Below, piece after piece: positions 23,789-62,988 of a DNA stretch of 64,000 bases. The number at the start of each line of letters is the position of its first letter. The stretch's first letter is position 1. The position numbers were made by a program, and so were the translations under genes. Origin of the DNA: a bacterium UBA2214 (GTDB taxonomy: Bacteria > Zhuqueibacterota > Zhuqueibacteria > Residuimicrobiales > Residuimicrobiaceae); assembly GCA_002327255.1 (NCBI GenBank), contig DCUM01000165.1, forward strand, positions 40,427-104,426. Direction: 5' to 3'. Under the pieces are notes generated by a model. That model was not told the DNA's origin and made no database searches. It worked only from the letters and a program-made list of their open reading frames with translations.

Positions 23789-23849
23789 GGTCGCTCCCGA
23801 GTACAGCACAGAAAGTGTGCTGTATCATTTTCTCTGCACTTGCGGCCTG

Positions 23850-25124: not shown

Positions 25125-25139
25125 AGCGATGCCACCCTC

Positions 25140-34297: not shown

Positions 34298-34301
34298 GGC
34301 T

Positions 34302-36151: not shown

Positions 36152-36152
36152 A

Positions 36153-44465: not shown

Positions 44466-45791
44466 TCATCCGCCTCGCGCGCCAAAAGCCGGCGCGCGCC
44501 GGCTTTGCAGCAACGCTTTTTTGCGTTCCAGCAATTTGGCGCGCACGCGCGGATCCGCCAGCAGTTTGCGCTGATGCGCTTCGATTTTTGCCGCCACCAG
44601 GGTGATGCCAAAAACCATCCAGATATGGTTCTTGACATAGAGGTTGCGATAATCCGGTGACGGCAGCATGGCGATGGCAAAAGCGATAATGGCCGTGACG
44701 GCCGCCGACGATATATGATAGATGAACGGATCCTTGCTCTTGCGCTGTTTAAATCCCACATAGAGAAAAGAGGCAATGATCGCAATAAACAGGATCATTC
44801 CCGGATAGCCCGTTTCCGCGCCGATGAGCAGGTAGCTGCAATGAACGATTTGCAGACCCGCGGTTTGCTTGCTGACGAATTCCTTGTAGTTGTTGAGCCC
44901 GACGCCGGTGACGGGATGATCGTTCATGATGCGGATGGCATCCGCAGCAAGATTCTTGCGGCTCGAAGAGCGGTCGGACATCATCGAATCCTCCGCATCG
45001 CTGAAACGATCGATGATGATCGTTCCATAACGCAGCGCACCCAATAACGCCACCACAGCCATCAGCGCCAGCAGCCCGCGCGCCTTTTTTGTCAACGCCT
45101 TGCCGCGAAAAAAATCGATGGCGAACATGAGAACCATCGCACCCGCAAACCCAAGCCAGTTGGCGCGGTTGAGGGTTGCATACAGTGCCACCACGCCGAT
45201 GAAAAAGGCGGCGACATAAAAGGGATGGTATTTGGGACGCAGATAAACCGCCATGCGAAACGTCAACACCGACATCAGCGACATATAGAAGCCGGCCACA
45301 CTGGGATGCACGAAGGTCCCCATGGCCTGCCAACCCCAGAATTGTTCGCCGAGAATGCTCAACCCCACCGGACCGCGCAACCACTGGTGGATGGCGATGA
45401 GCCCTTCATAGAGCAGGCCAAATGCGAAACCCAAAAAAAAGTATTGCAAATCCTCCCTGGTGTTGACAAACAGGATAATGGCGAAAAAAATCAACAGCGC
45501 GCGCAGATTATAGACCAGTTCCTGATTGACAAAGGGCTTGTTCATGGCGAAAAAGACACCGGTGGCGGACCAGAGAAAAAAAAGTACGGTCAAGGCGATC
45601 GGCACCAGGGCCTGACGCGACTGTTTGATACGCTTGCGTCCGAGGATGAACAGCAGCAGCAACGGAACATCCACGATGTGTACAGGGTCCGCACCGGCGA
45701 TGTGCGCTGTCAAACTGGCAAAGGTCACGCCCTGCGCGATCGTCGCGAAAAAGGTCAATAAAAGCAAAATATATTTGGTATAACGGGCCAT
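44466..45791 (-). CDS. O-antigen ligase / Wzy-like polymerase-family membrane protein
   Basis: 441 aa polytopic protein with a large periplasmic loop containing ATLNRANWLGFAGAMVL (Wzy_C / O-antigen ligase signature Arg). Confidence 0.65.
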   Translation of the reverse strand: MARYTKYILLLLTFFATIAQGVTFASLTAHIAGADPVHIVDVPLLLLFILGRKRIKQSRQALVPIALTVLFFLWSATGVFFAMNKPFVNQELVYNLRALLIFFAIILFVNTREDLQYFFLGFAFGLLYEGLIAIHQWLRGPVGLSILGEQFWGWQAMGTFVHPSVAGFYMSLMSVLTFRMAVYLRPKYHPFYVAAFFIGVVALYATLNRANWLGFAGAMVLMFAIDFFRGKALTKKARGLLALMAVVALLGALRYGTIIIDRFSDAEDSMMSDRSSSRKNLAADAIRIMNDHPVTGVGLNNYKEFVSKQTAGLQIVHCSYLLIGAETGYPGMILFIAIIASFLYVGFKQRKSKDPFIYHISSAAVTAIIAFAIAMLPSPDYRNLYVKNHIWMVFGITLVAAKIEAHQRKLLADPRVRAKLLERKKALLQSRRAPAFGARGG

Positions 45792-45800: not shown

Positions 45801-47045
45801 TCATGCCGCAAGCCGGCTCTGCCAGCGCCGCCACAGCTCCCAAAGCGCCACGCCGGCAAAAAGAAACAACAGGGGCAACATTGGAATGCGATAACGCGGC
45901 ACCACCAGCATCAGCACATGCAAGGCCGTATAATAGCCGATCATCAAATAGATCAGCAACAACTCCCGCCATTTCCGCCTGCTGAGCCAGAGGCCGAAGA
46001 CCGAGAGGAGCAATAGCGGATAATAGGATAGCGCCAGAACCAGCTGCACCGCGGTGCCGCCCTGGCGCTTGCCCCCGGTCGGCGCCGACTCGTAGATCCA
46101 GAACCAGAAGCGTATCATTTTACGCCCCATCAATCCCAGCGTCGCCCAGGGTTGTTCCACGATGTTGTCAATGGCCTCCTGCCTGAGCCGCCGCTCCCGC
46201 TGCACCTGGTTCATGCCGGCGGTCATGCTGTCCATCAGCGCCATGGTCTCCCCGTAGCTGTATTTGCCATCCAGCGGCAGATAGTTGCCCGTCCACATGA
46301 CATCACCCGTCCCCACCGCGATGGGCACAAAGGCCTCAAAGACCACGTAATTTCGTATCGCCCAGGGGATGATGGGCATGACAAAAAAGAGGCCATAGAG
46401 GGTGACCTGACGCAGTACGGCGCGCGGCCGGTAACGCAGCAGCAGCGCGATGCCGAGCAAAACGGGCAGAAACAGCGTCACCCCCCGGGTCATGGTAACC
46501 AGGCCGGCGACCAGGCCCGCGATGGCCAGCCGTTTCCAGGAAGGCGCGGCCAGAGCGCGCACGGCCAGCCACAGCGTCGCCACGAAAAGAAAAATGAAAA
46601 CCGTCTCGGTATAGAGAAAGGTGTTGAGTACCACCAGCTCGGGCATGAAGAGCGCGAGCACAAAAGCGATCAAAGCCGGGCCGTGGTCAAAGTAGCTGCG
46701 CACCAGCAGATAAAGCAGCCACGCCGTCACACTCCCGAGCACAGCCTGCACCAGCTCGACCAGCAACGGCTGCACGCCGGCCAGGAAATAAACCGCCGCA
46801 AGAAAAAACGGATAAAGGGGTGCGACAAAACAACTGGGATTTATGCCATCCTGGCTGAATCCACGGCCTTCGATGAGATTGACCGCGATCCCGTGGTAGG
46901 TGGCGGCATCGAGGGCCGCCGCACCGCCGATATGCTGCGTCGCCAGGACGAATAACACCCGCGCCACCAGGCCGGCAAGGCCGATGCCCCACAGCGCGCG
47001 CCGGGTGTGCCGTTGCTGCATTCCCTGTCGTATGCGCTGGCTCAC
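45801..47045 (-). CDS. GT-C-fold membrane glycosyltransferase, ArnT/PMT-like
   Basis: 414 aa polytopic protein. First loop DAATYHGIAVNLIEGRGFSQDG matches the ArnT/PMT loop-1 pattern. Confidence 0.6.
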   Translation of the reverse strand: MSQRIRQGMQQRHTRRALWGIGLAGLVARVLFVLATQHIGGAAALDAATYHGIAVNLIEGRGFSQDGINPSCFVAPLYPFFLAAVYFLAGVQPLLVELVQAVLGSVTAWLLYLLVRSYFDHGPALIAFVLALFMPELVVLNTFLYTETVFIFLFVATLWLAVRALAAPSWKRLAIAGLVAGLVTMTRGVTLFLPVLLGIALLLRYRPRAVLRQVTLYGLFFVMPIIPWAIRNYVVFEAFVPIAVGTGDVMWTGNYLPLDGKYSYGETMALMDSMTAGMNQVQRERRLRQEAIDNIVEQPWATLGLMGRKMIRFWFWIYESAPTGGKRQGGTAVQLVLALSYYPLLLLSVFGLWLSRRKWRELLLIYLMIGYYTALHVLMLVVPRYRIPMLPLLFLFAGVALWELWRRWQSRLAA

Positions 47046-48691
47046 TGTGAATCCAATTCCTTTCTGACACGATACAATTCCAGTTCAGGGCTGATATGCA
47101 GATCGTTGGCCGGCGCCACCCGAACCATCAAATCGCAATGCCGCACCACCCAGTCGTAGAAACGCTCTCTCTGCGCGACGCGATCGGGATAGCGCTGCCG
47201 CGATTGCGGCCATTCATAGCGCCCGCGCGTAAAGCTGTCCAGAAGCAAATATTCAATCCGGTTTTCCACCACATAGTCTGAAGCATCCTGCGCCAGCGTG
47301 CGTTGCATGCCATGTGCGAACATTTTCGGCGCAATGCCGTAGACATCGTAGGCGCGACGGTAATCCGGCGAGCGGCGGATGATCCCGTAATTCAAATCGT
47401 GGATACTCAGCAGCGGCGGCGCAAATTCCTCGGTGCCGATCCGCGCCCCCTCGGCCAGGTTCTCCTCAATCCAGGTTTTTAATCGGGTTCTTGTATCAAT
47501 TTGATACAAAGCGAGATCGAAACGCAGCGATTGGGCCGCTTGCGGCAAGAGCGCAACGGCGACCATAACTACATTAAATATCAGTAAATTGCGTTTATCT
47601 GAAATACGATTGCACAGCATCACGACAAACTCAGCGGCAATAAGCAGCAAAAATGGCACCAAAGGCAGCAGATGGCGCATGGCCTTGTAGTTCATCTGGC
47701 CGATCACAGCATAAAGACAGAGTGGAAAAATCAGGACGAGCAGGTCGCGTTTTTCATGGCGCAGCAGAAAGAGAATAATCCCCGCGATGAACAGCAGGGT
47801 AATCCCCCAACCCAGACTGCCGGCGAAAGTGTTGTCATGGAAAAAACCATAACCCGGCGAATGATCGCCGGTGAAATAGGAAAAAAAGGATCCCCCCGAC
47901 CCCAACTTGCCGGTCTGTTCGAATTCGGCGGTGCCGACCACGCTCTGCCAGAAACGCCTGAAATCGATGAGCGGCAACGGGCAACCCAGCAGAAATGCGG
48001 TCGCCGTGGCGGCGGCGGCCAGCCAGAGGCGGCGCTCCCTGAGCCGCTGCATCATGCCTCTGACGAGGCCCTTGCGGGACAAACCGTCGGCCAGCAAATG
48101 GGCGGCGAGAATGGGCAAGACGATCAGTCCGGCATTGTATTTCGTGGCGACGGCCAGGCCCGCAAAAAGGCCCGCCAGAATGTAAGCCTTGCCTCCCTCC
48201 CGCCTGAAAATACCCGCACAGTAATAGAAAGAGAGGGCCACCAGCAGGGTCAACAGGGTATCCACAGTGCCAAAATGGGCGTTTTTGACCGGAAGAAAAG
48301 CGACCGCCCAGAAAGCCGCGGCCCACAATCCTGTCTGGCGTGAATAGAGTTTTTTCCCGGTGCGATACATGACCCAGATGGTGAGCAAACCGGCGCAGAG
48401 CGAAAGCCAGCGGCCGACGAGATGAAAATGGAACGGATGCAGATAATAATATTCCTTGACCGCGGCAAGGCTCGCGGTTGTTCCCGTGATGATCAGGCCA
48501 ATGATATAAAACCCGAAAGCGATTGCCAGCACAAACGCATACAAGGGAGGATATCCCTTGAGCAAAAACACGGTCTCCGACGACCAGTTGTGGTAATCCA
48601 GCAGATTGCCCGCATGATAGACCAGTTTCATCTCATCCGGATGATAACGAAAGGGATCGCCGAATCCGAGGCCGAGGAGACGCAGCAGCAA
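47042..48691 (-). CDS. GT-C-fold membrane glycosyltransferase, PMT/ArnT-like (second paralog)
   Basis: 549 aa. N-terminal loop FGDPFRYHPDEMKLVYHAGNL (HPDE acidic motif), many TM segments, globular C-terminal domain. Confidence 0.6.
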   Translation of the reverse strand: MLLRLLGLGFGDPFRYHPDEMKLVYHAGNLLDYHNWSSETVFLLKGYPPLYAFVLAIAFGFYIIGLIITGTTASLAAVKEYYYLHPFHFHLVGRWLSLCAGLLTIWVMYRTGKKLYSRQTGLWAAAFWAVAFLPVKNAHFGTVDTLLTLLVALSFYYCAGIFRREGGKAYILAGLFAGLAVATKYNAGLIVLPILAAHLLADGLSRKGLVRGMMQRLRERRLWLAAAATATAFLLGCPLPLIDFRRFWQSVVGTAEFEQTGKLGSGGSFFSYFTGDHSPGYGFFHDNTFAGSLGWGITLLFIAGIILFLLRHEKRDLLVLIFPLCLYAVIGQMNYKAMRHLLPLVPFLLLIAAEFVVMLCNRISDKRNLLIFNVVMVAVALLPQAAQSLRFDLALYQIDTRTRLKTWIEENLAEGARIGTEEFAPPLLSIHDLNYGIIRRSPDYRRAYDVYGIAPKMFAHGMQRTLAQDASDYVVENRIEYLLLDSFTRGRYEWPQSRQRYPDRVAQRERFYDWVVRHCDLMVRVAPANDLHISPELELYRVRKELDSQ

Positions 48692-48759
48692 CCCGGCGGC
48701 CAGGATGGCAAACAGCCATTTTCTCCCGGCGCCGATCCCGTCTGACTTAACAACCCTGT

Positions 48760-49863
48760 CTACGATTTTCCACCTCTGACTTTATGGAAGAGCGCCTCGT
48801 AATCTTCTGTCACCTTGTCCCAGGAGTAGTGCTGATGCACCCGTTGTTTGACGACTCTGCGGAAGTGCGCCACTTCCTGCGGATGGTCGAGGATAAACTG
48901 CAGCTGCCGGCGCAGGGAATCGGGTTCCCGGGTGGTGAAATAGACGCCCGCGTCCGCCAGCACTTCGCGATGTTCGGGCACATCATTGGCGAGTACACAG
49001 TTGCCATAGCCCATGCCCTCGAGCAAAGCCGGGTGGGTGCCGCCGACCTCGGTCGCCTGCACATAACAATAGGCATGCTGCTGCAGTTCCCGGTAACCCT
49101 GTCCAAACACATAGCCGGTGAAAAGGATGCGGGGGTCACGGGTGGCGCGCAGCCGGGTGATATAATCGCTGCTGTAGGGGGCATCGCCGACCATGACCAG
49201 TTTCATGCCGGTTTTCACCTGTTCAAAAGCTTCGACGACCCGATGGGCGTTGTTCTCCGGTTCCATGCGGCTCACATAGAGGACGTACTCGCGGCTCTGC
49301 AACTGCAGCCGATCCAGGATTTCCCGGGTTTCGATCGGCGTCTCGGGCGCTCCATAGGGGATGTAGGTCGATTCCTTTTGAAATTTTTCCAGATAATAGT
49401 TTTGCACCTCGCGGGCATCCGAGACGATGGCCGTGGGTAAAAAAGTGGCGAGATACTCGGATATCCGGTAGAACATTTTTCCAGCCCAGTTCCACTTCTG
49501 CCGTTTCCACTCCAGACCATCGACATTGAGAATGACGGGTTTGCCCATCACTCTCGGCAAAAAGGTAAAAATCGCGTTGGCGCTGTTGCAGATGAACACC
49601 ATATCATAACGCCGGAAAAAACTGTGCAAGGCGCAGAAACAGGTATGCGCCACGGTGTCGAGATACTTATGACTGATGGTGGGCAGGATGACGATGCGGA
49701 CGCCCTTGTACCAGGGCGAGCGATACGCAATGATGTTGCTGCGGCCATAGACCGTGACCTGATGTCCCTTTGCCACCAGCCGCGGCGCCATCTGTTCAAT
49801 AAAAGTCTCAAATCCCCCGTAATTGGCGGGGATGCCACGGATACCCATAATGGCGATTCTCAT
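48760..49863 (-). CDS. GT4 glycosyltransferase with a DUF1972-type N-terminal half
   Basis: MRIAIMGIRGIPANYGGFETFIEQ...MKLVMVGDAPYSSDY...EVGGTHPALLEGMGYGNCVLANDV. Confidence 0.7.
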   Translation of the reverse strand: MRIAIMGIRGIPANYGGFETFIEQMAPRLVAKGHQVTVYGRSNIIAYRSPWYKGVRIVILPTISHKYLDTVAHTCFCALHSFFRRYDMVFICNSANAIFTFLPRVMGKPVILNVDGLEWKRQKWNWAGKMFYRISEYLATFLPTAIVSDAREVQNYYLEKFQKESTYIPYGAPETPIETREILDRLQLQSREYVLYVSRMEPENNAHRVVEAFEQVKTGMKLVMVGDAPYSSDYITRLRATRDPRILFTGYVFGQGYRELQQHAYCYVQATEVGGTHPALLEGMGYGNCVLANDVPEHREVLADAGVYFTTREPDSLRRQLQFILDHPQEVAHFRRVVKQRVHQHYSWDKVTEDYEALFHKVRGGKS

Positions 49864-51347
49864 AGCGTGCCCCCCTCCAACTCCAGCGCAGGCGCCGTTT
49901 TTTTGCCGGCACGCCGCAGCAGGTCGCCCACTTCACGAAACAGGGAACGCTTGATCAGCCACAAGGCGCCCACATAGGCGGCGCCGCAGAGCACGCCGCC
50001 GGCGATGAGATTGAGCAGCATGGCGCCGGGCCACTGTGCATAGATCACAGTCCGCACCGCCAGGGCTACCAGAATCATGACAACACTGGCCACTGCAGCG
50101 GGCCACAACGCCTGAAAAAACTCTCGCATGGTCAGATCCGCCTGACGATTGGTGATGTATTGTATGACCGGGAATGTCAACAGGTATAATCCGGTATAGG
50201 CCGCGGAGGCGCCGACCAGACCGTACCGGCAACCCCAGTAGATGGCGCCGGCAAATGGCACCAGATAGAGCGAATTCCACCAAAACTCGATCTGCGGTTT
50301 GCCGCGCGCTTTCAAAACCGACCCACGAATCGTGCCCACCGATTTGAGCATGGCCATGGGAACCAGTATGATAAGCGGCAGCACCAGCTCTTTCCATTCA
50401 CTGCCCAATACCACCAGGACAAATTCCCGGGCATAGAGCGCCAGTCCCGTCAGAATCGGGAATGTGATCAGGGAGATGTAGCGCATCGAATGCACATATC
50501 CCCATTTGAACGACTTGAGGTCGGACTGCACCGCCGAAAATGCGGGGAAGGTCACGCGCGAGACGATACCGGAGAGGCGCGTCACCGGCAGTTTCACCAG
50601 CTGCATCGCCATGCCATAGACGCCGAGGGCGGAATCGCCGAGAAGCCGGCCGACGATGGTGATATCGGCGTTGGAATTGAGATAAAAAGCGACGTCGTTG
50701 CCGATGACTTTGCTGCTGAAACCGGCCAATTCCCTGAATTCCGGCCAGGCGAAATGGCGTTTGGGTTTGAAACCGCTGTAATGCCAGAACAGGAGCACGG
50801 CGGTCACATCGCGCACCAGCATGGCGATGACGAGGCTCCAAACCCCCTGGCCGCCCAGCGCCAGAGCGATCGCGATGAGGCCATAGACCACGGCGGAGAC
50901 CGTCTCGATGATGCCCAGCTTTTTGAAGGCCATCTCACGCACCAGCAGCGCCTTTTGCACCACGCAAAACGCATCGATGATGAAACCGAGAGCCAGCACG
51001 ATGACGACCGGCTGAATCGCCGGCGTGCGAAAAAAAGAACGCATCGGATAGGATGCCAATACCGAGATAATAAACAGCGTCACGCCGAATGCCAGACTGC
51101 CCCAGAAAAGGGAACTCAGGTGTCCGGCGTGGATGGCTGGTTTTTGCACGATGGCGGTGCCGAGACCGTTATCCGTCACGATTTGAATGGCGATGGTGAT
51201 CAGCGCCGCCATACTGACAAGGCCAAAATCGCTGGTACCGAGCAGGTTGGCGAGGATGATCATCACCACGGAAAGCACCGCCTGCATGGTCATCTTGGCC
51301 ATGCCGGTCCACAGCACCCCCTGCACCGTCTTCTGCTTCAGGCTCAT
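49860..51347 (-). CDS. Second Wzx-type flippase / polysaccharide-biosynthesis (PST) membrane protein
   Basis: 495 aa, 12-14 TM segments, N-terminus QGVLWTGMAKMTMQAVLSVVMIILANLLGTSDFGLVSMAALITIA. Confidence 0.7.
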   Translation of the reverse strand: MSLKQKTVQGVLWTGMAKMTMQAVLSVVMIILANLLGTSDFGLVSMAALITIAIQIVTDNGLGTAIVQKPAIHAGHLSSLFWGSLAFGVTLFIISVLASYPMRSFFRTPAIQPVVIVLALGFIIDAFCVVQKALLVREMAFKKLGIIETVSAVVYGLIAIALALGGQGVWSLVIAMLVRDVTAVLLFWHYSGFKPKRHFAWPEFRELAGFSSKVIGNDVAFYLNSNADITIVGRLLGDSALGVYGMAMQLVKLPVTRLSGIVSRVTFPAFSAVQSDLKSFKWGYVHSMRYISLITFPILTGLALYAREFVLVVLGSEWKELVLPLIILVPMAMLKSVGTIRGSVLKARGKPQIEFWWNSLYLVPFAGAIYWGCRYGLVGASAAYTGLYLLTFPVIQYITNRQADLTMREFFQALWPAAVASVVMILVALAVRTVIYAQWPGAMLLNLIAGGVLCGAAYVGALWLIKRSLFREVGDLLRRAGKKTAPALELEGGTL

Positions 51348-53110
51348 GGCCAGAGCTCCCGCGGCGGGTCGAGGCGTGCGGCGAGGGCGGCTTCAGGCAG
51401 CGCCGGCGCGCCGGCGAGGCGGTAGACGTCCACCCGCCATTTCGATCCCGGAACGGAAGCCAGCCTCTCGTAGCGTTCCGCCACCATGCGGTCGAGAAAA
51501 GCGCGATAGCGGGAAAACTTTTTCTCGGTGTACCCATCCATGATGATGAAAAGCGGCGGCGCCTCCTCAAAATCGCTTTCAAAGTGCGGATCATATTTCA
51601 TAAAGAAAAGCGTCGGATGCGACACCCCGCCCCAGGGCTGCAGTCCGGAGGTATGGGTCCAGATCATGGCGCCGCTGAGGACGGTGTCGCTGCGTTGGCC
51701 CTGCTGCTGCAAAAGTGCCACCACCCGATCGAGTGTCCGCGGCGACCAGCCGCATTCGTATTTGGGCCCGATGACGCTGCCGGAAACCGAAGCCGTCATC
51801 ATCAGCACCGCCAAACCGGCCGCCGTGAGCGGCGCGGTCTCACGCGCAAAGGCGTAGCGGCGGATGAGCAGCACCGCTGCGCTGATCACGACAGCCGCAA
51901 CCACGTGTCCCCACAGCGGCCAGCGCCACTGCCACATCAGGCGCTGCGCCAGGAAGAGCAGGACGAAGAGTCCGCTCACCGTCACAAAACGCTGCAGCAG
52001 ATGCCGGCCCTGCAGCGATCCTCTGATCACCGGAACGGCCAAAATCAGCCAGGCGGGCAGACTCTCCAGGAAATACTGGCTGTAAAAGCCGCGACTCGCC
52101 GACTGAAAAGCATAGGCGAGGAGCAAAATAAAGATCCACAGGGCCAGGAAGAGATAAGCCGGATCTTTCCCGGGTTTGTTTCTCTTGGACAGATAACGTC
52201 CCAGACTCCAGAGAGCGGCTGTCACAATGAAGAAAGAAAAGAGGATGGATTCCCTCCACGCGCGCAGGGTATAACCGACCTCCTGATCCAGAATCCGGAA
52301 TCCTTCACGATCGACAATGCGCATGGCCGCGGGTAGAATCCCGAGGCTGTGGGCCACCCGGTTCCAAACCAGATTCAGCGGATTGAGTTGTGAAAAAAGC
52401 ATCTGCTCGAACGTCAGTGCACCCCCATAAAACCACAGGACCACAGCGCCTACCAGCGCAAACCCCGCGCTGAACACGGCAATTTTTTGCCAGACAAGGC
52501 GTTTGCAAAAGCCCTCCCCAATCCAGAGGCAGAGGACGACGGCGACGGGCAGATAGAGTGTCGATTGACGCACGTAAAAAGCGAGGGCGGCGCTCATCCC
52601 CGCGAGGAGGAGCAAGTCCCATCGCCGCGGCTGCTGCAGCGTCCGTATGAAAAGCCAGGCGCCGACGCAGACGAACAACACCGCCGGCATCTCGGTTTTT
52701 ACCACCGTAGACCAGATGAGGGTGTAGGGCAAAAAAAGATAGATGGCCGCAGCGAGCCAGCCGCTGGCCGCATCGAAGAGCTGCCGGACGATGAGATAGA
52801 TCATCCAGGCGATGGCCAGCGACGCGAAGAGCGGCAGCAGCCTACCGGCTGCGAGACTGGTGCCAAAGGCTTTGACGAAAAGCGCCAGCAGATAGGTATA
52901 GAGCGGCTGCCGTGAGGCATAATCGATGATGGGAACCATCCCCTGCCAGACCAGACGGGCGTCGAGCAGATGCGCGCCTTCGTCCGCGTTGATCCATCGC
53001 ACGGAGAGCAGCGCCAGGCGCAGGAGCAGGGCCAGAGCCAGGGTCACCAGCATCCACAGACCTGACTTTTCGCTCCAGTCGGAGCGTATTTGTTCAAGCC
53101 TGAACTTCAC
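51344..53110 (-). CDS. GT-C-fold membrane glycosyltransferase, PMT/ArnT-like, with a soluble C-terminal domain
   Basis: 588 aa. Loop-1 INADEGAHLLDARLVWQG acidic motif. Roughly 11 TM segments, then a ~200-aa globular tail. Confidence 0.55.
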   Translation of the reverse strand: MKFRLEQIRSDWSEKSGLWMLVTLALALLLRLALLSVRWINADEGAHLLDARLVWQGMVPIIDYASRQPLYTYLLALFVKAFGTSLAAGRLLPLFASLAIAWMIYLIVRQLFDAASGWLAAAIYLFLPYTLIWSTVVKTEMPAVLFVCVGAWLFIRTLQQPRRWDLLLLAGMSAALAFYVRQSTLYLPVAVVLCLWIGEGFCKRLVWQKIAVFSAGFALVGAVVLWFYGGALTFEQMLFSQLNPLNLVWNRVAHSLGILPAAMRIVDREGFRILDQEVGYTLRAWRESILFSFFIVTAALWSLGRYLSKRNKPGKDPAYLFLALWIFILLLAYAFQSASRGFYSQYFLESLPAWLILAVPVIRGSLQGRHLLQRFVTVSGLFVLLFLAQRLMWQWRWPLWGHVVAAVVISAAVLLIRRYAFARETAPLTAAGLAVLMMTASVSGSVIGPKYECGWSPRTLDRVVALLQQQGQRSDTVLSGAMIWTHTSGLQPWGGVSHPTLFFMKYDPHFESDFEEAPPLFIIMDGYTEKKFSRYRAFLDRMVAERYERLASVPGSKWRVDVYRLAGAPALPEAALAARLDPPRELWP

Positions 53111-53853
53111 GATTTTCGCGCCATGCAGAGCAGTGAGAGGCCAAATGGCAAATCGATGAAGCGCATGAGCCCATTCTCGAAATAGAGAATGCCCGTCAAC
53201 AGGGCGTTGAGCGGCGCAGCGATCTCATTGAGATCGGAGGTCCCCTCCTCATGGGGTTTGACACTTCTTTTGCGCAGCAAGCGCACAGCCGCCAGAGCCG
53301 GAAAGAGGACGGTGTTGCGATAGCTGAGCCTGATATCCGTGAAACCGGCACTGTGGAGTTTGCTGCGCATCTCGCGCCGGTTGAAGCGGTGCGCGGTATG
53401 AACCGCGGCATCATGGGAACTCTTGAGCGCATCATAGGCGGGCAAATTGAGAAGAACCAGACCGCCCGGACGCAGGGCGCGATGGATATCCTTGAGGACG
53501 GCCACATCATCGCGGATGCTGCGATGGCAGAGCACATCGAGAGAGAGGATGACATCAAAAGCATTCGCCGCAAAGGGGATTTCATTGATCGAGGCGCGTA
53601 CGAGCCGGTTGAGGCCGCGCTGGCGGCAGCAGACCAATCCATCCGCGGCAAAATCGAATCCGATTCCCGTGATACCCCTTTTTTTCGCAACGTGTTCGAG
53701 AATGCCCCCGGTACCGCATCCGGCATCGAGCAGAGAGGCAGCGGATGAAACGCCGGCCCGGGTCAACATGGTTGTCACCATATGACGAAGACCGTTATAC
53801 CACCAGTAGTGGTCTTCGAGATGATACATGACAGAATATTCTTGTTTTTCCAT
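53107..53853 (-). CDS. Class I SAM-dependent methyltransferase
   Basis: Motif I LLDAGCGTGGI. Post-I acidic residue and motif II VILSLDVLCH. Start set at MEKQEYSVMYH. Confidence 0.75.
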   Translation of the reverse strand: MEKQEYSVMYHLEDHYWWYNGLRHMVTTMLTRAGVSSAASLLDAGCGTGGILEHVAKKRGITGIGFDFAADGLVCCRQRGLNRLVRASINEIPFAANAFDVILSLDVLCHRSIRDDVAVLKDIHRALRPGGLVLLNLPAYDALKSSHDAAVHTAHRFNRREMRSKLHSAGFTDIRLSYRNTVLFPALAAVRLLRKRSVKPHEEGTSDLNEIAAPLNALLTGILYFENGLMRFIDLPFGLSLLCMARKS

Positions 53854-53984
53854 TACTCCTGCCGCTGTTCGCACACTTCCCAACCCGGATAAACCGGAAC
53901 CGTTGCAGGGTGGGTTGGCCGACTTGCGCTCGGCGTTCCCAGGCCAGCTACTTGTTCTCTGGTGCCATCGCTACACGGCACCCT

Positions 53985-54019
53985 GCAACTGCCTGCCGCC
54001 AACTGCCTGCTGCCAACTG
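53985..54019. repeat. Short tandem repeat, about 2.5 copies of a ~13-bp unit (GCCAACTGCCTGC), in an intra-operon gap
   Basis: Direct reading: gcaactgcctgcc gccaactgcctgct gccaactg. A GGTGCC...GGCACC hairpin lies 20 nt away. Confidence 0.4.
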
Positions 54020-54039
54020 AAACACAGGCGGGTCTCCCT

Positions 54040-54094
54040 GCATCTATTGCCATTTTGCAAAAAAAAACCAGAAACTAACCCTCAAACCGGTTTA
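54040..54094 (-). terminator. Candidate weak intrinsic terminator/attenuator at the 3' end of the aminotransferase gene
   Basis: On the minus strand AAACCGG...(15-nt loop containing the TAG stop)...CTGGTTT, followed by T9. The stem is AT-rich, so this is weak. Confidence 0.3.
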
Positions 54095-55175
54095 TCACTT
54101 CAGCCACAAAGCCTACTTCGTCATCACTCAACTCGGGATAAATCGGCAGCGACAGAATCTCCGCAGCGTACTGCTCAGCAAGGGGGAAGGAACCCCTCGG
54201 CAAGCCGAGTTCCTTATAGGCATTTTGAAGATGACAGGGAACCGGATAGTGAATCTGCGTTCCGATGCCGTATTCGGTGAGATGTTTTCGGAGTTTGTCA
54301 CGCTGCGCACAGCGGATCACGTAGAGATGAAAAACGTGATAGACATCGGCCTGCTGCCCGGGCGTGATGATTTTGTCATTCCTGATTTCGCGGTCATAAA
54401 TGGCCGCCATCTGGCGGCGGCGCACATTCCAGGTTTCCAGATAGGGCAGCTGGGCCGAGAGGATGGCGGCTTGCATTTCATCCAGGCGGCTGTTAAATCC
54501 CTTGATCTCATGATAATAACGTTCGAGCTGGCCATAATTCCGCAGCAGCCTGATCTGCTCGGCAAAGCGGTTGTCGCGCGTCACCACCATGCCGGCATCA
54601 CCGAATGCGCCGAGATTTTTGCTGGGATAAAAACTGAAGCATCCGTAGGCGCCGAAGGTTCCGGCTTTGCGGCCTTTGAAGGCGGCACCATGGGCTTGAC
54701 AGGCGTCTTCGATGAGCGCCAATCCATGGCGGTCAGCGATCTCGGTCAACGCCTCGATGGCGCAGAGATTGCCATAGAGATGCACGGGAATGATGGCACG
54801 TGTACGCGGGGTGATGCAGCGCTCCACCAGTTTGACATCCATACAAAATGAAGCGGGATCGATATCCACAAACACCGGCACGCCGCCGGCAAACGAGATG
54901 GCCGAGAGCGTCGGCACCGCGGTGTTGGGCACGGTGATGACTTCGTCGCCCGGCTTGACGCCGGCGGCGACCAGCGCCAGATGCAGGGCTTCGGTACCGG
55001 AGCCAACGCCGATCGCATGCCCAACGCCCAGATATTGCGCAAATTCCGCTTCAAAGCGTTCAAGCTCCTTGCCCAAAATAAACCAGCCGCTGGCGAGTAC
55101 GCGAGCCGCCGCTTTGTCTATATCCGTCTGAATGCTGCGATAATGTCTTCTCAAATCTCCAAATGGAACCCGCAT
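54075..55175 (-). CDS. DegT/DnrJ/EryC1/StrS-family PLP-dependent sugar aminotransferase (ArnB/perosamine-synthase-like)
   Basis: 366 aa. Motifs GWFILGKELERFEAEFAQYLG, AIGVGSGTEAL and the PLP-lysine block FSFYPSKNLGAFGDAG. Confidence 0.85.
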   Translation of the reverse strand: MRVPFGDLRRHYRSIQTDIDKAAARVLASGWFILGKELERFEAEFAQYLGVGHAIGVGSGTEALHLALVAAGVKPGDEVITVPNTAVPTLSAISFAGGVPVFVDIDPASFCMDVKLVERCITPRTRAIIPVHLYGNLCAIEALTEIADRHGLALIEDACQAHGAAFKGRKAGTFGAYGCFSFYPSKNLGAFGDAGMVVTRDNRFAEQIRLLRNYGQLERYYHEIKGFNSRLDEMQAAILSAQLPYLETWNVRRRQMAAIYDREIRNDKIITPGQQADVYHVFHLYVIRCAQRDKLRKHLTEYGIGTQIHYPVPCHLQNAYKELGLPRGSFPLAEQYAAEILSLPIYPELSDDEVGFVAEVINRFEG

Positions 55176-55185
55176 AAAAAAAACC

Positions 55186-56859
55186 TCATTCCGTTCGATT
55201 CAGTTTATCAACCCGATAAATATACGCATAACGTGGCCCGGCCGAGATGGACTCCAGCAGCGTAAATCCCGGCAGCGTTTCGCCCACACCGAGAAAAGCG
55301 ATTGTTTCCAGCCGCCGGTTCTTGTTGACCCATTCCGACCAGGCTGTATGCTGGCTCGCCATGAGATTATAGCTCAACCAGGCCACGTGACTGATGTTCT
55401 GCTGTTTCAGCCAGGGGTGCAATTCCTGCGGCGGCAACTGCGGTGCATCGGTGAGCCGGAAAAAGGCGTCCTGCGGATCCAGCCCGGTATAGTAAGCCAC
55501 TATATTCGGCTGCGACACCAGCAGACGATTTCCTGCGGTGTAATTTTTCTCAAACCACTCTCCCACCAGCCGGAATTCGGCTTTGGCATAGTAGAGTTCA
55601 AAGAGCTCGTTGCGGGTGCGGGAGTTGATATGAAAAGCCAGAAAGATCATCACGCTGACCGCCATAAAAAAAGTCGCCAGACTCTTGACTCTGAATCGTG
55701 GCCAATGAAAAAAGAAAAGCGGTGCCACATAGGCCAGCATCCATACCCAGGAAGGCTGATATTGCGGGTACGGAGAACGGGTGACGATCAGGACATAGAC
55801 GGTAGCGCTCAAAACGCCAATGGCGAGAGCCAGACAGGTTTTCCTGGCCTGGCGACATTTCTGTGACAACCGTGAATGGCGCAGCTGCTCGCGGCCCCAC
55901 CAGCACAATTGAGCGACGCCGTGAACCAGAAATATCAACGCCACCCAGGCGGCCATGACCATATAATCGCTCCCGGAGAAGGGCCATACGACATGCAGGG
56001 CGACAAAGGAGACGAGATAGATGATCAATGCCAGCGTGCTGCGCGCATCGCGGCGCCACAGCGCGAGAAAACCCGCCACGAACAGGAGCGCGCCGAGCAG
56101 GACCCAAACTTTAAACCAGGAGACCGGTAAAAAACCGAACAGTTCGGTTAAAAACATGTAGACAAAATGGAAGTTGAGCGAATAACCGGAAAAATAATCG
56201 CCATAGTTGCTGCCCGGCTCACCGGAACCCTGGAAAAACGTCCACATCACGATGAACAAGGATGAAACGATGGCCAACAGCAAGGAGCGTTTTTTATCGC
56301 GCCCAAAGAAGAAATCAGCGACAAAAAAAGCGGCGATGGCCAGGATGCCCTCATAGCGCACCAGCGTGGCCAGGAAAGCGATGAGATAGGCGCGGCGGTC
56401 GCCACGCAGGTAGCGTTCAAAAGCCCACAGGATCAAAACGGTCAACACGATTTCCGGCTTCGGCTTCAGGGCCATGCGCAGTGTGGAGACATGAAACGCC
56501 CAGATCCACACCACCCAGGGGGCGCTGGAGCGCGCGTAGCGGCGCGTAATGCGCCACAGCAGCCACAGTGCCAGCAAAGCGGACAGGACGCCCAGCGTCT
56601 CCGCTGCATACAGCTCCGCATGGTCGCCGGGCATCATGGTCGAAATGAATGCGATCAGCATGGGATAGAGCGGCGGCCGTTTGAAGTGATCCGGCCACTC
56701 CATGTTGCGCAGGCTGTTTGCCTTTTCGGCATAATCAAAAAAGTCGCTGTCCGGCACCAGGAAATGATTCACCTGCAACACGATTTGCACTGCAAAAACC
56801 GCAAACAGAATCAGCAGAAACCAGGTGGCGGGAACGTTTTTATCAATTTTTCCGAGCAT
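55186..56859 (-). CDS. GT-C-like polytopic membrane protein (fifth PMT/ArnT-like paralog)
   Basis: 557 aa. First loop NHFLVPDSDFFDYAEKANSL (acidic DxD-like motif), more than 10 TM segments, soluble C-terminal domain. Confidence 0.45.
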   Translation of the reverse strand: MLGKIDKNVPATWFLLILFAVFAVQIVLQVNHFLVPDSDFFDYAEKANSLRNMEWPDHFKRPPLYPMLIAFISTMMPGDHAELYAAETLGVLSALLALWLLWRITRRYARSSAPWVVWIWAFHVSTLRMALKPKPEIVLTVLILWAFERYLRGDRRAYLIAFLATLVRYEGILAIAAFFVADFFFGRDKKRSLLLAIVSSLFIVMWTFFQGSGEPGSNYGDYFSGYSLNFHFVYMFLTELFGFLPVSWFKVWVLLGALLFVAGFLALWRRDARSTLALIIYLVSFVALHVVWPFSGSDYMVMAAWVALIFLVHGVAQLCWWGREQLRHSRLSQKCRQARKTCLALAIGVLSATVYVLIVTRSPYPQYQPSWVWMLAYVAPLFFFHWPRFRVKSLATFFMAVSVMIFLAFHINSRTRNELFELYYAKAEFRLVGEWFEKNYTAGNRLLVSQPNIVAYYTGLDPQDAFFRLTDAPQLPPQELHPWLKQQNISHVAWLSYNLMASQHTAWSEWVNKNRRLETIAFLGVGETLPGFTLLESISAGPRYAYIYRVDKLNRTE

Positions 56860-56948: not shown

Positions 56949-57956
56949 TCACGACCAATAGTGTGCTTTGTGCTGTTTGTAAAAGGCAACCGTCTTTTCG
57001 AGACCGGTTTTCATGTCGGTGCGATAGCGCCACCCCAATACCGCGCGAATCTTGCGGTAATCGGCGTAAAAATCGCCGATATCGATGCGCTTCTTCTCGG
57101 CCGGAAAGGGCACCATCTCGAAATTGCCGCCCCCGGCCGTTTGCAGCAGCAGTTTGACGAAATCAGCCAGCATCATGGGCTCATCACCGCCGAGGTTGTA
57201 GATGCTGCCGTTGCAATCATCGAAGGCGGCAGCCAGACAGAAAGCATCGACCACGTCATCCACATAATTAAAATCGCGAATCTGCTTGCCATCGCCGAAG
57301 AGGCGGATGGTTTCGCCCTCGATGGCCTGACGGATGAAGACGCTGATAAAACCCTGGCGATTGTGTTTCATCAGTTGCCGCGGCCCATAGGTATTGGTCA
57401 GCCGCAGCGAAGTGGCACGGATGCCGTAGACGTTGTTGTAGAGGATGTGATACCACTCGCCGGCCATCTTGTTGATGCCATTGACGTCGGTCGGGTGCTG
57501 CGGATGTTTTTCATCCACCGGCAGATAGTCCGGTTTGCCGTACTGCTGCCGGGTGCCGGCAAAGACGATCTTCACATCCGGATTGTTGTGGCGGCAGGCT
57601 TCCAGCATGGAGAGCTGCGAGCGGCAGTTGATCTCGAGATCGGTGTAGGGATCCTCCATGCTGTCGATGTGACTCACCTGTCCGGCCAGATTGAAGATGA
57701 AATCCTGATCTTTGACCAGATAATTCATGCTGTATTGATCACGGATATCCGCGATGTTGATCTGTACCTGCTTTTCGACCCCCGCAACGTTGAAGAGATT
57801 GCCCCCATACTGCGGAAGCAACGAATCCACGATCAATACCCGGGCATCATACGATACCAGCCGGTGCGCCAGATTGCTGCCGATGAAACCCAGGCCGCCG
57901 GTGATCAGGCACTTCTTGCCCCTGAACGTTTTCGGCAGTTGCTCACGCTTTGGCAT
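56949..57956 (-). CDS. NAD-dependent sugar-nucleotide epimerase/dehydratase (SDR; UDP-glucuronate decarboxylase / 4-epimerase-like)
   Basis: Rossmann motif CLITGGLGFIGSNLAHRLV. Catalytic region VNGINKMAGE (YxxxK). Confidence 0.8.
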   Translation of the reverse strand: MPKREQLPKTFRGKKCLITGGLGFIGSNLAHRLVSYDARVLIVDSLLPQYGGNLFNVAGVEKQVQINIADIRDQYSMNYLVKDQDFIFNLAGQVSHIDSMEDPYTDLEINCRSQLSMLEACRHNNPDVKIVFAGTRQQYGKPDYLPVDEKHPQHPTDVNGINKMAGEWYHILYNNVYGIRATSLRLTNTYGPRQLMKHNRQGFISVFIRQAIEGETIRLFGDGKQIRDFNYVDDVVDAFCLAAAFDDCNGSIYNLGGDEPMMLADFVKLLLQTAGGGNFEMVPFPAEKKRIDIGDFYADYRKIRAVLGWRYRTDMKTGLEKTVAFYKQHKAHYWS

Positions 57957-58668
57957 TACGGCCCTCCCCGCGTACGACCAGCCGCAACCAGAGTTTTGAA
58001 AAATCCCGGGCGACGTGATAGAGACGGCTAAAGTTGAAGAACTGCGACTTGCCGGAAGAGCGGAAAAAATGGTTGACCCCGACCTCGGCGAATTTGCTTC
58101 CCTGACGGCTGATCTTGTGAATCATCTCCACGCAGATGGTGCCACTGTTGGAGGTCAATTCGATGGTGTCGAAAATCTTGCGGCGCATGAGCCGGAAGTC
58201 GCAATCCACATCGGTGATCGGCAGGGCAAAGAGCAGTTTGGCGGTGTACTGATAGATCTTGCCGAGCACGACGCGATAAAACGGGTCGTGGCGTTTGATC
58301 TTGAAGCCGTTGACAACATCGACGCCATCGTTCATGGCAGCGGCGAGGAGTAACAACTGGCGCACATCGTACTGCGCATCGCCATCGGTGTAAAAAATAA
58401 AATCCTTGCGCGCTTCCTTGAAACCGGTGCGGAGTGCGCCGCCGTAGCCGCGATTTTGTTCATGGTGAATGACGCGAATCTGCGGAAATCGTGACTCCAA
58501 AAAAGTGAGGATTTCCTGGGTCTTTTCTTCGCTGCCGTCATCCACCAGGATCACTTCATAGTCGTCGGTAATTTTCTCCGCAGCGGTGATGGCCTGGGCC
58601 GCCATCGAGGTGATGGTGCCCCAATCATTGTAGACCGGGAAAAATATCGACAGAGAAGACAATTTCAT
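57943..58668 (-). CDS. GT2 glycosyltransferase (polyprenyl-phosphate HexNAc synthase-like)
   Basis: Start at MKLSSLSIFFPVYNDW. DxD block ILVDDGSEEKT...YTDGDAQYD. The start overlaps the stop of the downstream deacetylase gene (ATGA-type coupling). Confidence 0.75.
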   Translation of the reverse strand: MKLSSLSIFFPVYNDWGTITSMAAQAITAAEKITDDYEVILVDDGSEEKTQEILTFLESRFPQIRVIHHEQNRGYGGALRTGFKEARKDFIFYTDGDAQYDVRQLLLLAAAMNDGVDVVNGFKIKRHDPFYRVVLGKIYQYTAKLLFALPITDVDCDFRLMRRKIFDTIELTSNSGTICVEMIHKISRQGSKFAEVGVNHFFRSSGKSQFFNFSRLYHVARDFSKLWLRLVVRGEGRNAKA

Positions 58669-58672
58669 GGCG

Positions 58673-59578
58673 CTATCGGGAAGAGTGTTCATCGATTTCT
58701 CGCTTGGTGTTAAGGTGCGCACGGATGGCGATCCGTTTGATGCCGGCTTGTTGCACGGCGCCTTTTAGCGTTTCATCACAGAGCAGGCGCTGCTCCTCAA
58801 ATCTATGCCATTCTATACTGCCTTTGGCGCCAGTTTGCGGATGGAATGCCGGATGCACCATCCATTCGTTGACGCCGCTGCCCAGGGAGTGCAGCAAGTC
58901 CATGAAGGTTCGCTGTTTGTCCCGGCTGGCATACCAGACCATGCCGCGAAAATGGCCGGCGTGCGCAAAAGAACGATAATAGCGCCGGCTGGCCCAGAGG
59001 GCCATCAGGCCCTGCTGCAGGGCAGCGCCAAACCCGCGGCCCCCCCGGCAGCGGCCTTCACTGCGGAGCGAAAGCTGTCGCACCCACCTCAGACCATATT
59101 CGCGGGCCAGCGGCGCCACAACGGCGGCGACGCGCGGCAAGAGATGAATGTGATGGTGGCTGTCGAGATGAGCGACCTGGAGTCCCGACGTCAGCAACCG
59201 CTCCATCTGCGCCCGGAATTCTCTTTCCATCGCACCCTGAGTCACCCGCCCGGCGAGAAGGCGCTGCGTCATGATCCACTTGCCCGGAAATAGCCCATTC
59301 CCGTTGGTCATCCTGGAGGTATCCGCAGCGTGTGCAAGCGCTCCGCCCGATGTGAAGTTGAGATGCAAGCCGACGTCCCATCCTTCACAGCATGCCCATG
59401 CACAAGCCTGTTCAAAAGCCGGGCCATTGGCCATCATGGACGTGCTGGTCACCATGCCGGTCTGATAACAGCGTTTGATGCCTTCGTTGACGGCCTGAGA
59501 CGCGCCGAGATCATCGGCGTGCACCACCAGGAGCGCTTCGCCGCCGCGCCGGAAGGCCTCCGCCACGGGCGCCTCCAT
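58673..59578 (-). CDS. YdjC/ChbG/HpnK/NaxD-family carbohydrate deacetylase
   Basis: N-terminal LLVVHADDLGASQAVNEGIKRCYQTGMVTSTSMMANG is the YdjC-superfamily metal-binding signature (D-D...H). LDSHHHIH provides the second His cluster. Confidence 0.75.
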   Translation of the reverse strand: MEAPVAEAFRRGGEALLVVHADDLGASQAVNEGIKRCYQTGMVTSTSMMANGPAFEQACAWACCEGWDVGLHLNFTSGGALAHAADTSRMTNGNGLFPGKWIMTQRLLAGRVTQGAMEREFRAQMERLLTSGLQVAHLDSHHHIHLLPRVAAVVAPLAREYGLRWVRQLSLRSEGRCRGGRGFGAALQQGLMALWASRRYYRSFAHAGHFRGMVWYASRDKQRTFMDLLHSLGSGVNEWMVHPAFHPQTGAKGSIEWHRFEEQRLLCDETLKGAVQQAGIKRIAIRAHLNTKREIDEHSSR

Positions 59579-61928: not shown

Positions 61929-61929
61929 G

Positions 61930-62988
61930 TCAACGCATTTCCTCGATAATATGTGCCAATGATTCGCCAATCCGCTGCAGGGTGCAGTGTTCCCTGAAGA
62001 CGCGATATCCTCCAGCCGCGATACGCTCGCGCAGTGCCGCATCCTCTCTGAGTTTGAGGATGGCTTCCGCCAACGCCGCCGGATTGGCGCGATCGATCAA
62101 ATAGACGCTTTCCCCGTGTTGCAGCAGTTCCTGCACCGGCTCATTGCGCGCTGTAATTAAAGGTTTTGCCATGGCGATGGACTCCACCACCTTGTTGGTC
62201 GTCACGCGCAAAACCCGGTCGTTATCGCCAAAAATGCCGAGGCACAAATCCGCCTGCGCGATGCGGTTCGCCAATTCGGCGTATGAGACCGGATCATAAA
62301 ACCTCACATTGGTCACATCCAATGATTTTGCCAGTCTTTGATCCTCGGCCCAGGTGATGCCGCGGCCGATGACGCGAAACTCGAGATCCTTTTCAGCGCG
62401 CAACAGGTGCGCCGCCTCGAGGATATACTTGATGCCATGGAACGGAGCATATTCACCATGGAAATGAACCAGAAATTTATCCGTATCCTTGCTGACGACG
62501 CGGGGATAAATGATGGTATCATCCACCGCCAGAAAAATGCGGCGCATCCGCGCCGGTTCCACGGCAAAGGTACGGCAGAAAAAATCGATGTGCGCCTGCG
62601 TCTCGAGGACGACGACATCCGACATGCGGTAGGAGAGCCGGTCGCTCCAGCCATAAAGACGCGCTTTGAGGCTTCCGGGTCTGGCTATGCCGCGATCATA
62701 AACCATGGTATCCAGCGTGGTGATGTACATATCGAACAGCAGCGGCTTGCGGGTCACCAGACGCACAAACGGCAACAGTATCTGACCATAAAAGCCGACG
62801 ATGACCAGGTCGCAGTGCCGGGCCTGACGCAGGACCCGCCACACCAGTCCCGGATAATGCCGGAAGGATCGATCCGGAGGAAAACAACCGATGACTTCAT
62901 ATCCCTGGCGTTCCAGGGCAGCACAGAGAATATGAGTGCGTGAATAGGAGCGTTCGCGGCCAGCCACGAAGAGAATGCGCTTTTTCAA
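61930..62988 (-). CDS. GT4-like (GT-B) glycosyltransferase
   Basis: 352 aa. [18 protein letters not shown]-terminus. C-terminal [23 protein letters not shown]. Confidence 0.65.

Follow-up and report, generated by a model that had tools for sequence, protein, structure and literature searches.

Within a 64,000-nt stretch of metagenome DNA (the window; contig DCUM01000165.1, bacterium UBA2214), we find an operon-like glycan cluster of more than 36 kb on the minus strand (27586-63959; gene spacing mostly -4 or -1 nt), which encodes six polytopic proteins assigned to glycosyltransferase fold class C (GT-C), here called A to F (Table 1), together with family 2 glycosyltransferases (GT2s) that resemble synthases of lipid-linked sugar donors. 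The contig from which the window is taken measures 274 kb, and the cluster runs past the right edge of the window. The window covers the greater part of a conserved operon for a cell-surface glycan, whose host is an uncultured member of the FCB group with a relationship to candidate division KSB1 (Zhuqueibacterota). The gene content of the cluster, the family or fold membership of its GT-C proteins, a conserved Asp in these proteins and conserved synteny are the observations on which we build. In the interpretation that we favor, with a probability of roughly 60%, one glycan made by a Wzx/Wzy pathway is decorated by several three-component extracytoplasmic glycosylation branches that work in parallel.

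The original prediction had described A to E as GT-C paralogs, each with a different acidic motif just after the first transmembrane (TM) segment. All five proteins are present on the minus strand with these motifs, although the span given for them, 45801-56859, leaves out A (31542-33341), and the sixth GT-C (the DUF2142 protein F, 30127-31497) and the donor-synthesis genes were overlooked. A to E contain at least nine hydrophobic segments each and carry two to five Lys/Arg residues before TM1, so that by the positive-inside rule the motif-bearing loop would face outwards, to the periplasm. That most of them also possess a soluble C-terminal domain was correctly noted: the tails of A, C, D and E comprise 128-163 aa, whereas only 9 residues follow the last TM segment of B.

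The GT-C assignment of A to E likewise holds, although it is reached by different routes. In Pfam scans, A (2.7e-15, 57.4 bits), B (2.7e-17, 63.9 bits, covering the whole profile), C (2.9e-16, 60.5 bits) and D (2.2e-17, 64.2 bits) match PMT_2 (PF13231; gathering cut-off 26.1 bits). A (5.1e-09, 36.5 bits) and C (1.3e-07, 31.8 bits) also exceed the cut-off of PMT (PF02366; 22.7 bits), with matches limited to the shared core (profile positions 85-239 in A and 85-194 in C, of 245), and B, D, E and F show no PMT match. For E, neither a Pfam match at E <= 0.01, PMT_2 included, nor an NCBIfam match is obtained. None of the six matches Arabinose_trans (GT53) or GT87 in Pfam at E <= 0.01, none reaches an NCBIfam equivalog or matches the NCBIfam model of ArnT, and no MIR domain is reported in them by the Pfam scans. 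Judged from the PMT_2 matches and the profile links to E described below, A to D are very unlikely to be anything other than GT-C enzymes.

Searches against solved structures yielded nothing usable, either with the single sequences of A, B, D and E or with profiles of the E and A families, and a fold comparison was therefore needed. The AlphaFold model of E, for which 37 homologs were collected and 35 aligned, has a pLDDT of 92.3 and a pTM of 0.92. When it is compared with the PDB by Foldseek, ArnT ranks first (5f15, E 1.2e-7, TM-score 0.53-0.55), followed by STT3, ALG12, AglB, PglB, AftB and ALG9; the top fold matches, among which Pmt4 is also named, are all GT-C family structures. The models of E and F are both helical membrane bundles, with AftB and AftA among their fold matches, and in both a conserved Asp lies at the first loop. 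By its predicted fold, E is a GT-C protein, which profile comparison places as an outlier of the PMT_2 superfamily, and F is, by its fold, the sixth GT-C protein in the cluster. The alternative that these proteins are unrelated permeases is rejected by the GT-C structures returned for E and F, and the Pfam matches and links to E make it very unlikely for A to D.

Although the five motifs do sit in different sequence settings, they are not independent of each other. In hhalign alignments that cover the first loop, the Asp residues of A to E share a single position (A D43, C D44 in 574-aa numbering, D D43, B D46 and E D39); the residue that follows is Glu in A, C, D and F, Ala in B and Phe in E. 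The Asp is invariant within each family: in E as 'VP-x-SDFF' in 26 sequences, two archaeal ones among them, and also in 54 distant members; in D as 'RWIN-x-DEG-x-HL' in 16 sequences; in C as 'YHPDE-x-KLV' in 12 full-length sequences; and in B as '(L/M)D-x-x-TY' in seven sequences. In A, 'AYHNDEW' occurs in 23 sequences with both D43 and E44 invariant, and D36/E37 of the F family are nearly invariant (>=90%). In the models, this Asp caps the first helix after TM1 (E, helix 38-51 after TM1 at 9-29; F, helix 37-48 after TM1 at 9-28). A catalytic Asp after TM1 is a general GT-C pattern (PMC11279074), and the first periplasmic loop of ArnT is made up of the helices JM1 and JM2 (PMC7801869). We therefore read the five motifs as five sequence settings of one homologous position with a presumed catalytic role. 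Because a single homologous Asp is shared, divergence of the motifs by itself, which had been taken as a sign of distinct acceptor or linkage specificities, does not serve as evidence for them.

By single-sequence comparison (phmmer), A is related to C (6e-28), B to D (2e-13 to 6e-15) and, weakly, A to B (3e-6). Local pairwise identity among A to E is approximately 22-40% and is BLAST-significant for A-C, B-D and A-B alone. When family profiles built from orthologs are compared by hhalign, all pairs of A to E reach 96-100% probability; the value is 100% for A-C, 97.8-98.7% for E against A to D, and 98.6% for D-E over 502 columns, the C-terminal domain included. A corresponding link of F to A to E was sought and rejected (hhalign <=17%), and F is connected to them through its fold alone. 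A to E are, as far as these comparisons tell, old and deeply diverged lineages, consisting of the pairs A/C and B/D plus E.

This picture is extended by the genomic context. When species-representative genomes were scanned, relatives of E turned up at 24 loci, in metagenome-assembled genomes (MAGs) labelled candidate division KSB1, Calditrichota, 'Cytophagia' or 'Actinomycetota' and, in two cases, in Methanoperedens archaea; in the NCBI taxonomy, candidate division KSB1 is Candidatus Zhuqueibacterota of the FCB group. When all window genes were mapped onto these loci, approximately 15 independent MAG loci with 29-49% identity in E were found to have a common gene order: three GT2s, a family 4 glycosyltransferase (GT4), a short-chain dehydrogenase/reductase (SDR), GT4, YdjC, small GT2, SDR, E, DegT, (methyltransferase), D, Wzx, GT4/DUF1972, C, (B), Wzy and carbamoyltransferase. 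Orthologs of E, D and C, and in many cases of B, thus keep the same order across approximately 15 KSB1-type loci. Since each GT-C forms a separate ortholog lineage that retains its place in many genomes, the proteins are neither redundant nor products of recent duplication; the notion of an expansion does not fit in the latter sense, but the claim that they are not redundant copies stands. A literature search on KSB1 polysaccharide clusters gave nothing usable.

The E family is large and mostly escapes the existing models. A profile search of 1.84 billion representatives found at least 543 clusters at 50% identity (E <= 1e-3), 186 of them at E <= 1e-30. Among 54 members with 18-42% identity, only five residues are invariant (D39, P63, R168, Y219 and W435). 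PMT_2 recognizes one of the 35 closest relatives of E and four of 54 diverse relatives, and the relationship between E and PMT_2 is visible only at the profile-profile level. We also considered anchoring 'D39-FFD-YAE' of E to 'D-ETR-YAE' of ArnT, which look alike by eye; this was rejected at a probability of 0.6% in hhalign for E. coli ArnT and the profile of 54 E-family members, and the resemblance serves at most as a lead. No GT-C protein was matched when E. coli ArnT was compared by phmmer with all cluster proteins; a profile of B orthologs gave a weak core match to ArnT (6.8e-7 in a seven-sequence database). Two Ca. Methanoperedens MAGs (loci L026, 5153-6853, and L027) carry E homologs with 23-24% identity and the motif VPNSDFFAF. 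The former is an isolated gene, surrounded by those for SRP54, UbiX/UbiD, CarB and topoisomerase, and is uninformative for glycosylation context; cross-domain transfer or bin contamination could account for these homologs. A distant family member of 606 aa (locus L032, 6110-9821) is preceded by an unannotated 625-aa gene, which may encode a second, tandem member of the family, and by an ArnC-sized GT2 (314 aa).

Gene boundaries required correction in some cases, particularly in C. As listed, C starts at a TTG codon that excludes most of TM1, and gene callers also start it at this downstream TTG; the reading frame is open further upstream, but no ATG, GTG or TTG lies between the upstream in-frame stop and TM1. 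The in-frame sequence 'IVDRVVKSDG...KWLFAILAAG' encoded there parallels the N-termini of A and of C orthologs, and the orthologs have Met at or beside the position of an ATC codon (48766-48764), which has a GAGG core 6 nt upstream and overlaps the stop codon (TAG) of the GT4/DUF1972 gene before it (ATCGTAG). C probably starts at this non-canonical ATC, giving 574 aa with D44 at 48635-48637. For D, gene callers place the start at 53053, giving 569 aa. The mechanically defined open reading frame (ORF) of F (30127-31692, 521 aa) matches DUF2142 at 5.1e-68; the database protein has 456 aa (30127-31497), and with this shorter form the apparent 150-nt overlap with gene A disappears.

Besides the GT-Cs, the genes that might supply their donors form the real argument for a mechanism. 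Four synthase-like GT2s lie in the window and six in the full cluster, about as many as there are GT-Cs. The small GT2 at 36153-36878, which adjoins a DUF2304 gene, is a candidate polyprenyl-phosphate-N-acetylhexosamine (HexNAc) synthase, and its neighbor at 36889-37629 is a further candidate synthase of a lipid-phosphate sugar. In the DUF2304 family, GacJ activates the undecaprenyl-phosphate-N-acetylglucosamine synthase GacI, and Rv3632 has this role for PpgS; in either case, the lipid-linked sugar is then used by a GT-C outside the membrane, and GacK provides a precedent for a Wzx-type flippase (bioRxiv 10.1101/180810). The GT2 at 62985-63959 is the last of three tandem copies, of which the other two lie past the right edge of the window; all three have an ArnC-like C-terminal TM pair, positioned at 238-256 and 269-287 in this protein versus 238-256 and 270-288 in ArnC. 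In another organism, a compact seven-gene module (locus L031, 10001-16003) begins with the DUF2142 gene, continues with NTP-transferase, SDR, DegT, hexapeptide acyltransferase, GT2 and DUF2304 genes, and looks like a minimal self-contained branch for N-acyl-amino-sugar glycosylation.

A second set of donor-related genes surrounds E. Across the approximately 15 loci, E is always flanked by a YdjC gene, a small ArnC-like GT2 and an SDR dehydratase-like enzyme, and DegT is found in most of them; more distant members of the E family adjoin a GT2 or a DegT. In the window, the small GT2 (57943-58722) is a candidate polyprenyl-phosphate-sugar synthase of this sub-module. The DegT protein matches the NCBIfam models of PseC (2.5e-79) and ArnB (9.7e-71), each below its cut-off. 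In Francisella and Acinetobacter, the YdjC-family enzyme NaxD deacetylates undecaprenyl-phosphate-N-acetylgalactosamine before a GT-C adds galactosamine to lipid A (PMC11279074), and by analogy the YdjC protein next to E is a candidate lipid-linked HexNAc deacetylase. A literature search on the Bordetella deacetylase LgmC gave nothing usable. In the E branch, an N-acylated amino sugar would be built on a lipid carrier, the YdjC enzyme would deacylate it, and E would transfer the resulting cationic sugar. An amino-sugar donor for E is suggested by these precedents; as its acceptor, the polysaccharide of the operon would be favored by context and lipid A by the Arn/Flm precedent.

In the mechanism that we propose for the cluster as a whole, cytoplasmic GT4 and GT2 enzymes would assemble a repeat unit on a lipid carrier, a Wzx-type flippase would export it, and the Wzy-like protein would polymerize or ligate it. 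The six GT-Cs (A to E of the PMT_2 superfamily and F of DUF2142) would act at the outer surface of the cytoplasmic membrane and decorate the glycan there, drawing on polyprenyl-phosphate-linked sugars made by the co-encoded ArnC/GtrB/PpgS-like GT2s. They would share a catalytic arrangement, in which the first juxtamembrane helix that follows TM1 begins with the invariant Asp, and different pockets, together with a C-terminal periplasmic domain in four of them, would give each GT-C its own donor and/or linkage. We infer the lipid-phosphate nature of the donors, the polysaccharide acceptor and the use of one donor per GT-C. Distinct roles of the GT-Cs are supported by the conservation of their orthologs and by the matching donor-synthase-like genes, and not by the differences between their motifs.

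Several points weigh against this interpretation. The NCBIfam matches of the GT2, SDR, DegT and YdjC proteins all remain below equivalog cut-offs and therefore do not fix the identities of the sugars; the small GT2s that lack TM helices could be ordinary cytoplasmic glycosyltransferases, and two of the six synthase-like GT2s that we count lie outside the window. Pfam scans and inspection of gaps revealed neither a priming phosphoglycosyltransferase nor a dedicated GtrA- or SMR-type flippase in the window. The pairing of GT2 and GT-C varies, in that GT2 and DUF2304 genes adjoin C or B rather than F in some relatives, and C, with no canonical start before TM1, may be poorly expressed or inactive. 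More generally, the activities, donors and acceptors of the six GT-Cs are predictions from genes and models.

The E sub-module might instead serve lipid A or lipopolysaccharide-core modification of the Arn, Flm-NaxD or Lgm type, placing a cationic amino sugar on lipid A phosphates. Its neighbors resemble ArnB (1.6e-58) and ArnC (6.1e-23), the NaxD route is typically recognized by its YdjC deacetylase, and the organism appears to be a diderm from its PorV-like type IX secretion and TonB-receptor-like genes (14246-21763). We nevertheless consider this unlikely: E has no sequence link to E. coli ArnT even with the 54-member profile and no match to the ArnT NCBIfam model, in profile comparisons it comes closest to D and C of the same cluster, and the sub-module lies within a Wzx/Wzy polysaccharide operon, together with which it is conserved. 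That same setting, with its Wzx and Wzy proteins, GT4s, and O-acyl and carbamoyl transferases, is wholly of polysaccharide type and makes it still less probable that some of the GT-Cs, A and C especially, are protein O-glycosyltransferases like actinobacterial Pmt or streptococcal PgfM. A and C do exceed the Pfam PMT gathering score and have large C-terminal domains, a close homolog of A is named 'glycosyltransferase family 39 protein' by NCBI, and the small GT2s give weak PgfS matches; however, the PMT matches cover the shared core alone and are weaker than those to PMT_2, and no MIR domain or acceptor-protein gene is evident.

Nearest to the wording of the original prediction, which envisaged several sequential periplasmic transfers, is the possibility that the GT-Cs act in sequence from a single lipid-linked donor, as the mycobacterial Emb/Aft enzymes do with decaprenyl-phosphate-arabinose (DPA). 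In that system, a single galactan is the target of several distinct GT-C arabinofuranosyltransferases (PMC11279074), and AftB and AftA are among our fold matches. The cluster shows no Pfam Arabinose_trans or GT87 match, however, and because the synthase-like GT2s are about as numerous as the GT-Cs, parallel branches with different donors fit better than sequential extension from one donor; up to six candidate synthases, next to a full Wzx/Wzy/GT4 machinery for the backbone, likewise point to several donors and side branches. Decoration by parallel branches is therefore likelier, and we regard sequential transfer from one donor as rather improbable. That the GT-C copies are redundant or partly decayed paralogs without distinct roles could be argued from the absence of a canonical start ahead of TM1 in C, but it hardly agrees with reading frames that are all intact, with local identities of only approximately 22-40%, BLAST-significant for A-C, B-D and A-B alone, and with separate orthologous lineages that each keep an invariant loop-1 motif of their own across many genomes; we give this view very little credence.

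The interpretation of parallel branches places the cluster within a known strategy. In three-component glycosylation, a GT2 or other synthase attaches a sugar to polyprenyl phosphate, a flippase carries it across the membrane, and a GT-C passes it on to a glycan that has already been exported; Xanthomonas and Bacillus also have clusters with several GT-Cs, which are left unexplained (PMC11279074). With the GtrA/GtrB/Gtr* systems of Shigella and Salmonella, GacI/GacJ/GacK/GacL of Streptococcus pyogenes and ORF15/ORF14/ORF12 (GT136) of Citrobacter, our cluster shares GT-Cs with an Asp after TM1; a GacI/GacJ-type pair of GT2 and DUF2304 genes and Wzx-type flippases are present as candidates for the other components. 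Unlike these prototypes, which have one GT-C and one synthase, it combines six GT-Cs and up to six synthase-like GT2s in one operon; unlike the Gtr systems, no ORF for a GtrA- or SMR-type small flippase is found in the only sizeable intergenic gaps of the cluster. The mycobacterial PpgS/Rv3632/Rv3779 system, which places galactosamine on arabinogalactan, and the Emb/Aft system are similar in having a PpgS-like GT2 with a DUF2304 protein and several GT-Cs, respectively, but here the genes form one operon in a diderm FCB-group host, with several donor synthases instead of the single DPA donor.

E itself resembles ArnT (GT83) in its layout of approximately 13 TM helices, with juxtamembrane helices within loop 1 and a periplasmic domain at the C-terminus, and its neighbors (ArnB-like aminotransferase, ArnC-like GT2, SDR and YdjC) recall the Arn system and Francisella FlmF2/NaxD/FlmK. 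In contrast to Arn, equivalents of the formyltransferase ArnA and the ArnD-type deformylase are absent, and the GT2 of the E module lacks the C-terminal TM pair of ArnC; in contrast to both Arn and Flm, E lies in a polysaccharide operon and not in a lipid A modification locus. With respect to the PMT_2/PMT families, which annotation pipelines treat as GT39/GT83-like, A to D belong to PMT_2, A and C also exceed the PMT cut-off over the shared core, and E falls outside the PMT_2 model. No member of these particular PMT_2-type lineages has been characterized.

The cluster also contains two MOP-family flippases, a Wzy_C-family protein and other glycan genes (Table 1). Flippase 1 exceeds the NCBIfam cut-off for MOP flippases (280.8 versus 273 bits). 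The second SDR gene is called with 333 aa, versus 371 aa for the ORF, which accounts for an apparent overlap of 113 nt. Between GT-C A and the DUF2304 gene lies an overlapping pair of MBOAT (34302-35741) and SGNH/GDSL-like (33338-34333) genes, a layout that we take to be like that of extracytoplasmic O-acetylation pairs. The product of the last gene of the cluster (27586-29646) has 686 aa and combines a GHL15 glycoside-hydrolase-like domain with a Golvesin C-terminal domain; it may be a glycan-processing hydrolase of the type that often ends exopolysaccharide operons. To the left of the cluster are trigger factor, ClpP and ClpX genes (23850-27289); a priming phosphoglycosyltransferase or export genes were sought on this side, where housekeeping and type IX secretion-like genes were found instead. 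The latter region (14246-21763) contains, side by side, a PorV-like type IX secretion protein (14246-15286), a 1107-aa ORF without a Pfam match (15329-18652) and a TonB-receptor-like protein with CarboxypepD_reg and Plug domains (18713-21763), a set of genes that would fit an FCB-group diderm. The G+C content is 0.50 at 22001-24000, compared with 0.54-0.60 in the rest of the window.

Table 1. Positions of the GT-C proteins and other features of the glycan cluster in the window
Feature	Position	Strand	Details
GT-C A	31542-33341	-	599 aa; YHNDE aa 40-44, D43 at 33213-33215; 128-aa soluble C-terminal tail
GT-C B	45801-47045	-	414 aa; LDAATYHG, DAATYHG aa 46-52, D46 at 46908-46910; without C-terminal domain
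GT-C C	47042-48766	-	YHPDE; 163-aa C-terminal tail; listed as 47042-48691 (TTG, 549 aa, motif aa 16-20)
GT-C D	51344-53110	-	588 aa from GTG; RWINADEGAHL, NADEG aa 41-45, D43 at 52982-52984; 140-aa C-terminal tail
GT-C E	55186-56859	-	557 aa; VPDSDFFDY aa 35-43, D39 at 56743-56745; 146-aa C-terminal tail
GT-C F (DUF2142)	30127-31497	-	456 aa; PPFQAPDE, D36 at 31390-31392; without C-terminal domain
DUF2304 small membrane protein (GacJ/Rv3632 family)	35738-36190	-	Pfam DUF2304 7.9e-19; four hydrophobic segments
Small GT2, PpgS/GacI-like	36153-36878	-	241 aa; NCBIfam best PpgS 4.3e-25, below cut-off; DUF2304 gene next
Small GT2, AglJ/PpgS-like	36889-37629	-	246 aa; Pfam GT2 4.3e-22; NCBIfam AglJ 4.2e-17, PpgS 2.9e-16, below cut-offs
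Small GT2, ArnC-like catalytic domain	57943-58722	-	259 aa; NCBIfam best ArnC 3.7e-23, below cut-off; phmmer E. coli ArnC 6.1e-23
GT2 with two C-terminal TM helices	62985-63959	-	324 aa; NCBIfam AglJ 4.2e-36, ArnC 9.4e-18, below cut-offs; near full length
DegT/ArnB-type sugar aminotransferase	54075-55175	-	Pfam DegT 7.4e-125; phmmer E. coli ArnB 1.6e-58
SDR sugar-nucleotide dehydratase/epimerase (Epim2)	56949-57956	-	Pfam Epimerase 1.5e-50; best NCBIfam dTDP-glucose 4,6-dehydratase 1.1e-43, below cut-off
YdjC-family carbohydrate deacetylase	58673-59578	-	Pfam YdjC 1.2e-57; NCBIfam ChbG/HpnK-like ~1e-39, below cut-offs
Second SDR sugar-nucleotide enzyme	60927-62042	-	Pfam scans
MOP-family (Wzx-type) flippase 1	49860-51347	-	Pfam Polysacc_synt_3 1.9e-76; 4-nt overlap with end of D
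MOP-family (Wzx-type) flippase 2	41169-42605	-	Pfam Polysacc_synt 2.5e-36
Wzy_C-family protein (O-antigen polymerase or ligase type)	44466-45791	-	Pfam Wzy_C 1.1e-18; directly downstream of B
Cluster, other contents	27586-63959	-	Six GT4s (one Cps2T-like), carbamoyltransferase (NodU-like), S-adenosylmethionine methyltransferase, MBOAT and SGNH pair, GHL15 hydrolase-like protein; Pfam scans

The system is an unusually elaborate case of a known strategy rather than a new one, and the accepted view of GT-C enzymes and three-component systems is unchanged by it. For annotation, our models suggest a fold and a catalytic residue for the E family, whose members are labelled 'hypothetical' in databases, and lend structural support to the view that DUF2142 proteins are GT-C enzymes with a PDE motif in loop 1. 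Tentatively, the E family could define a new Arn/NaxD-like route that places a deacylated cationic amino-dideoxy sugar on the KSB1-type envelope; the operon would then direct approximately six parallel lipid-phosphate-sugar/GT-C branches at a single glycan, and no prototype system that we found described has as many. An uncultured phylum of the FCB group keeps a large operon that is apparently invested in decorating its surface glycan after export, which may bear on evasion of phages and predators, on adhesion and, because pairs of GT-C and synthase are modular tools, on glycoengineering.

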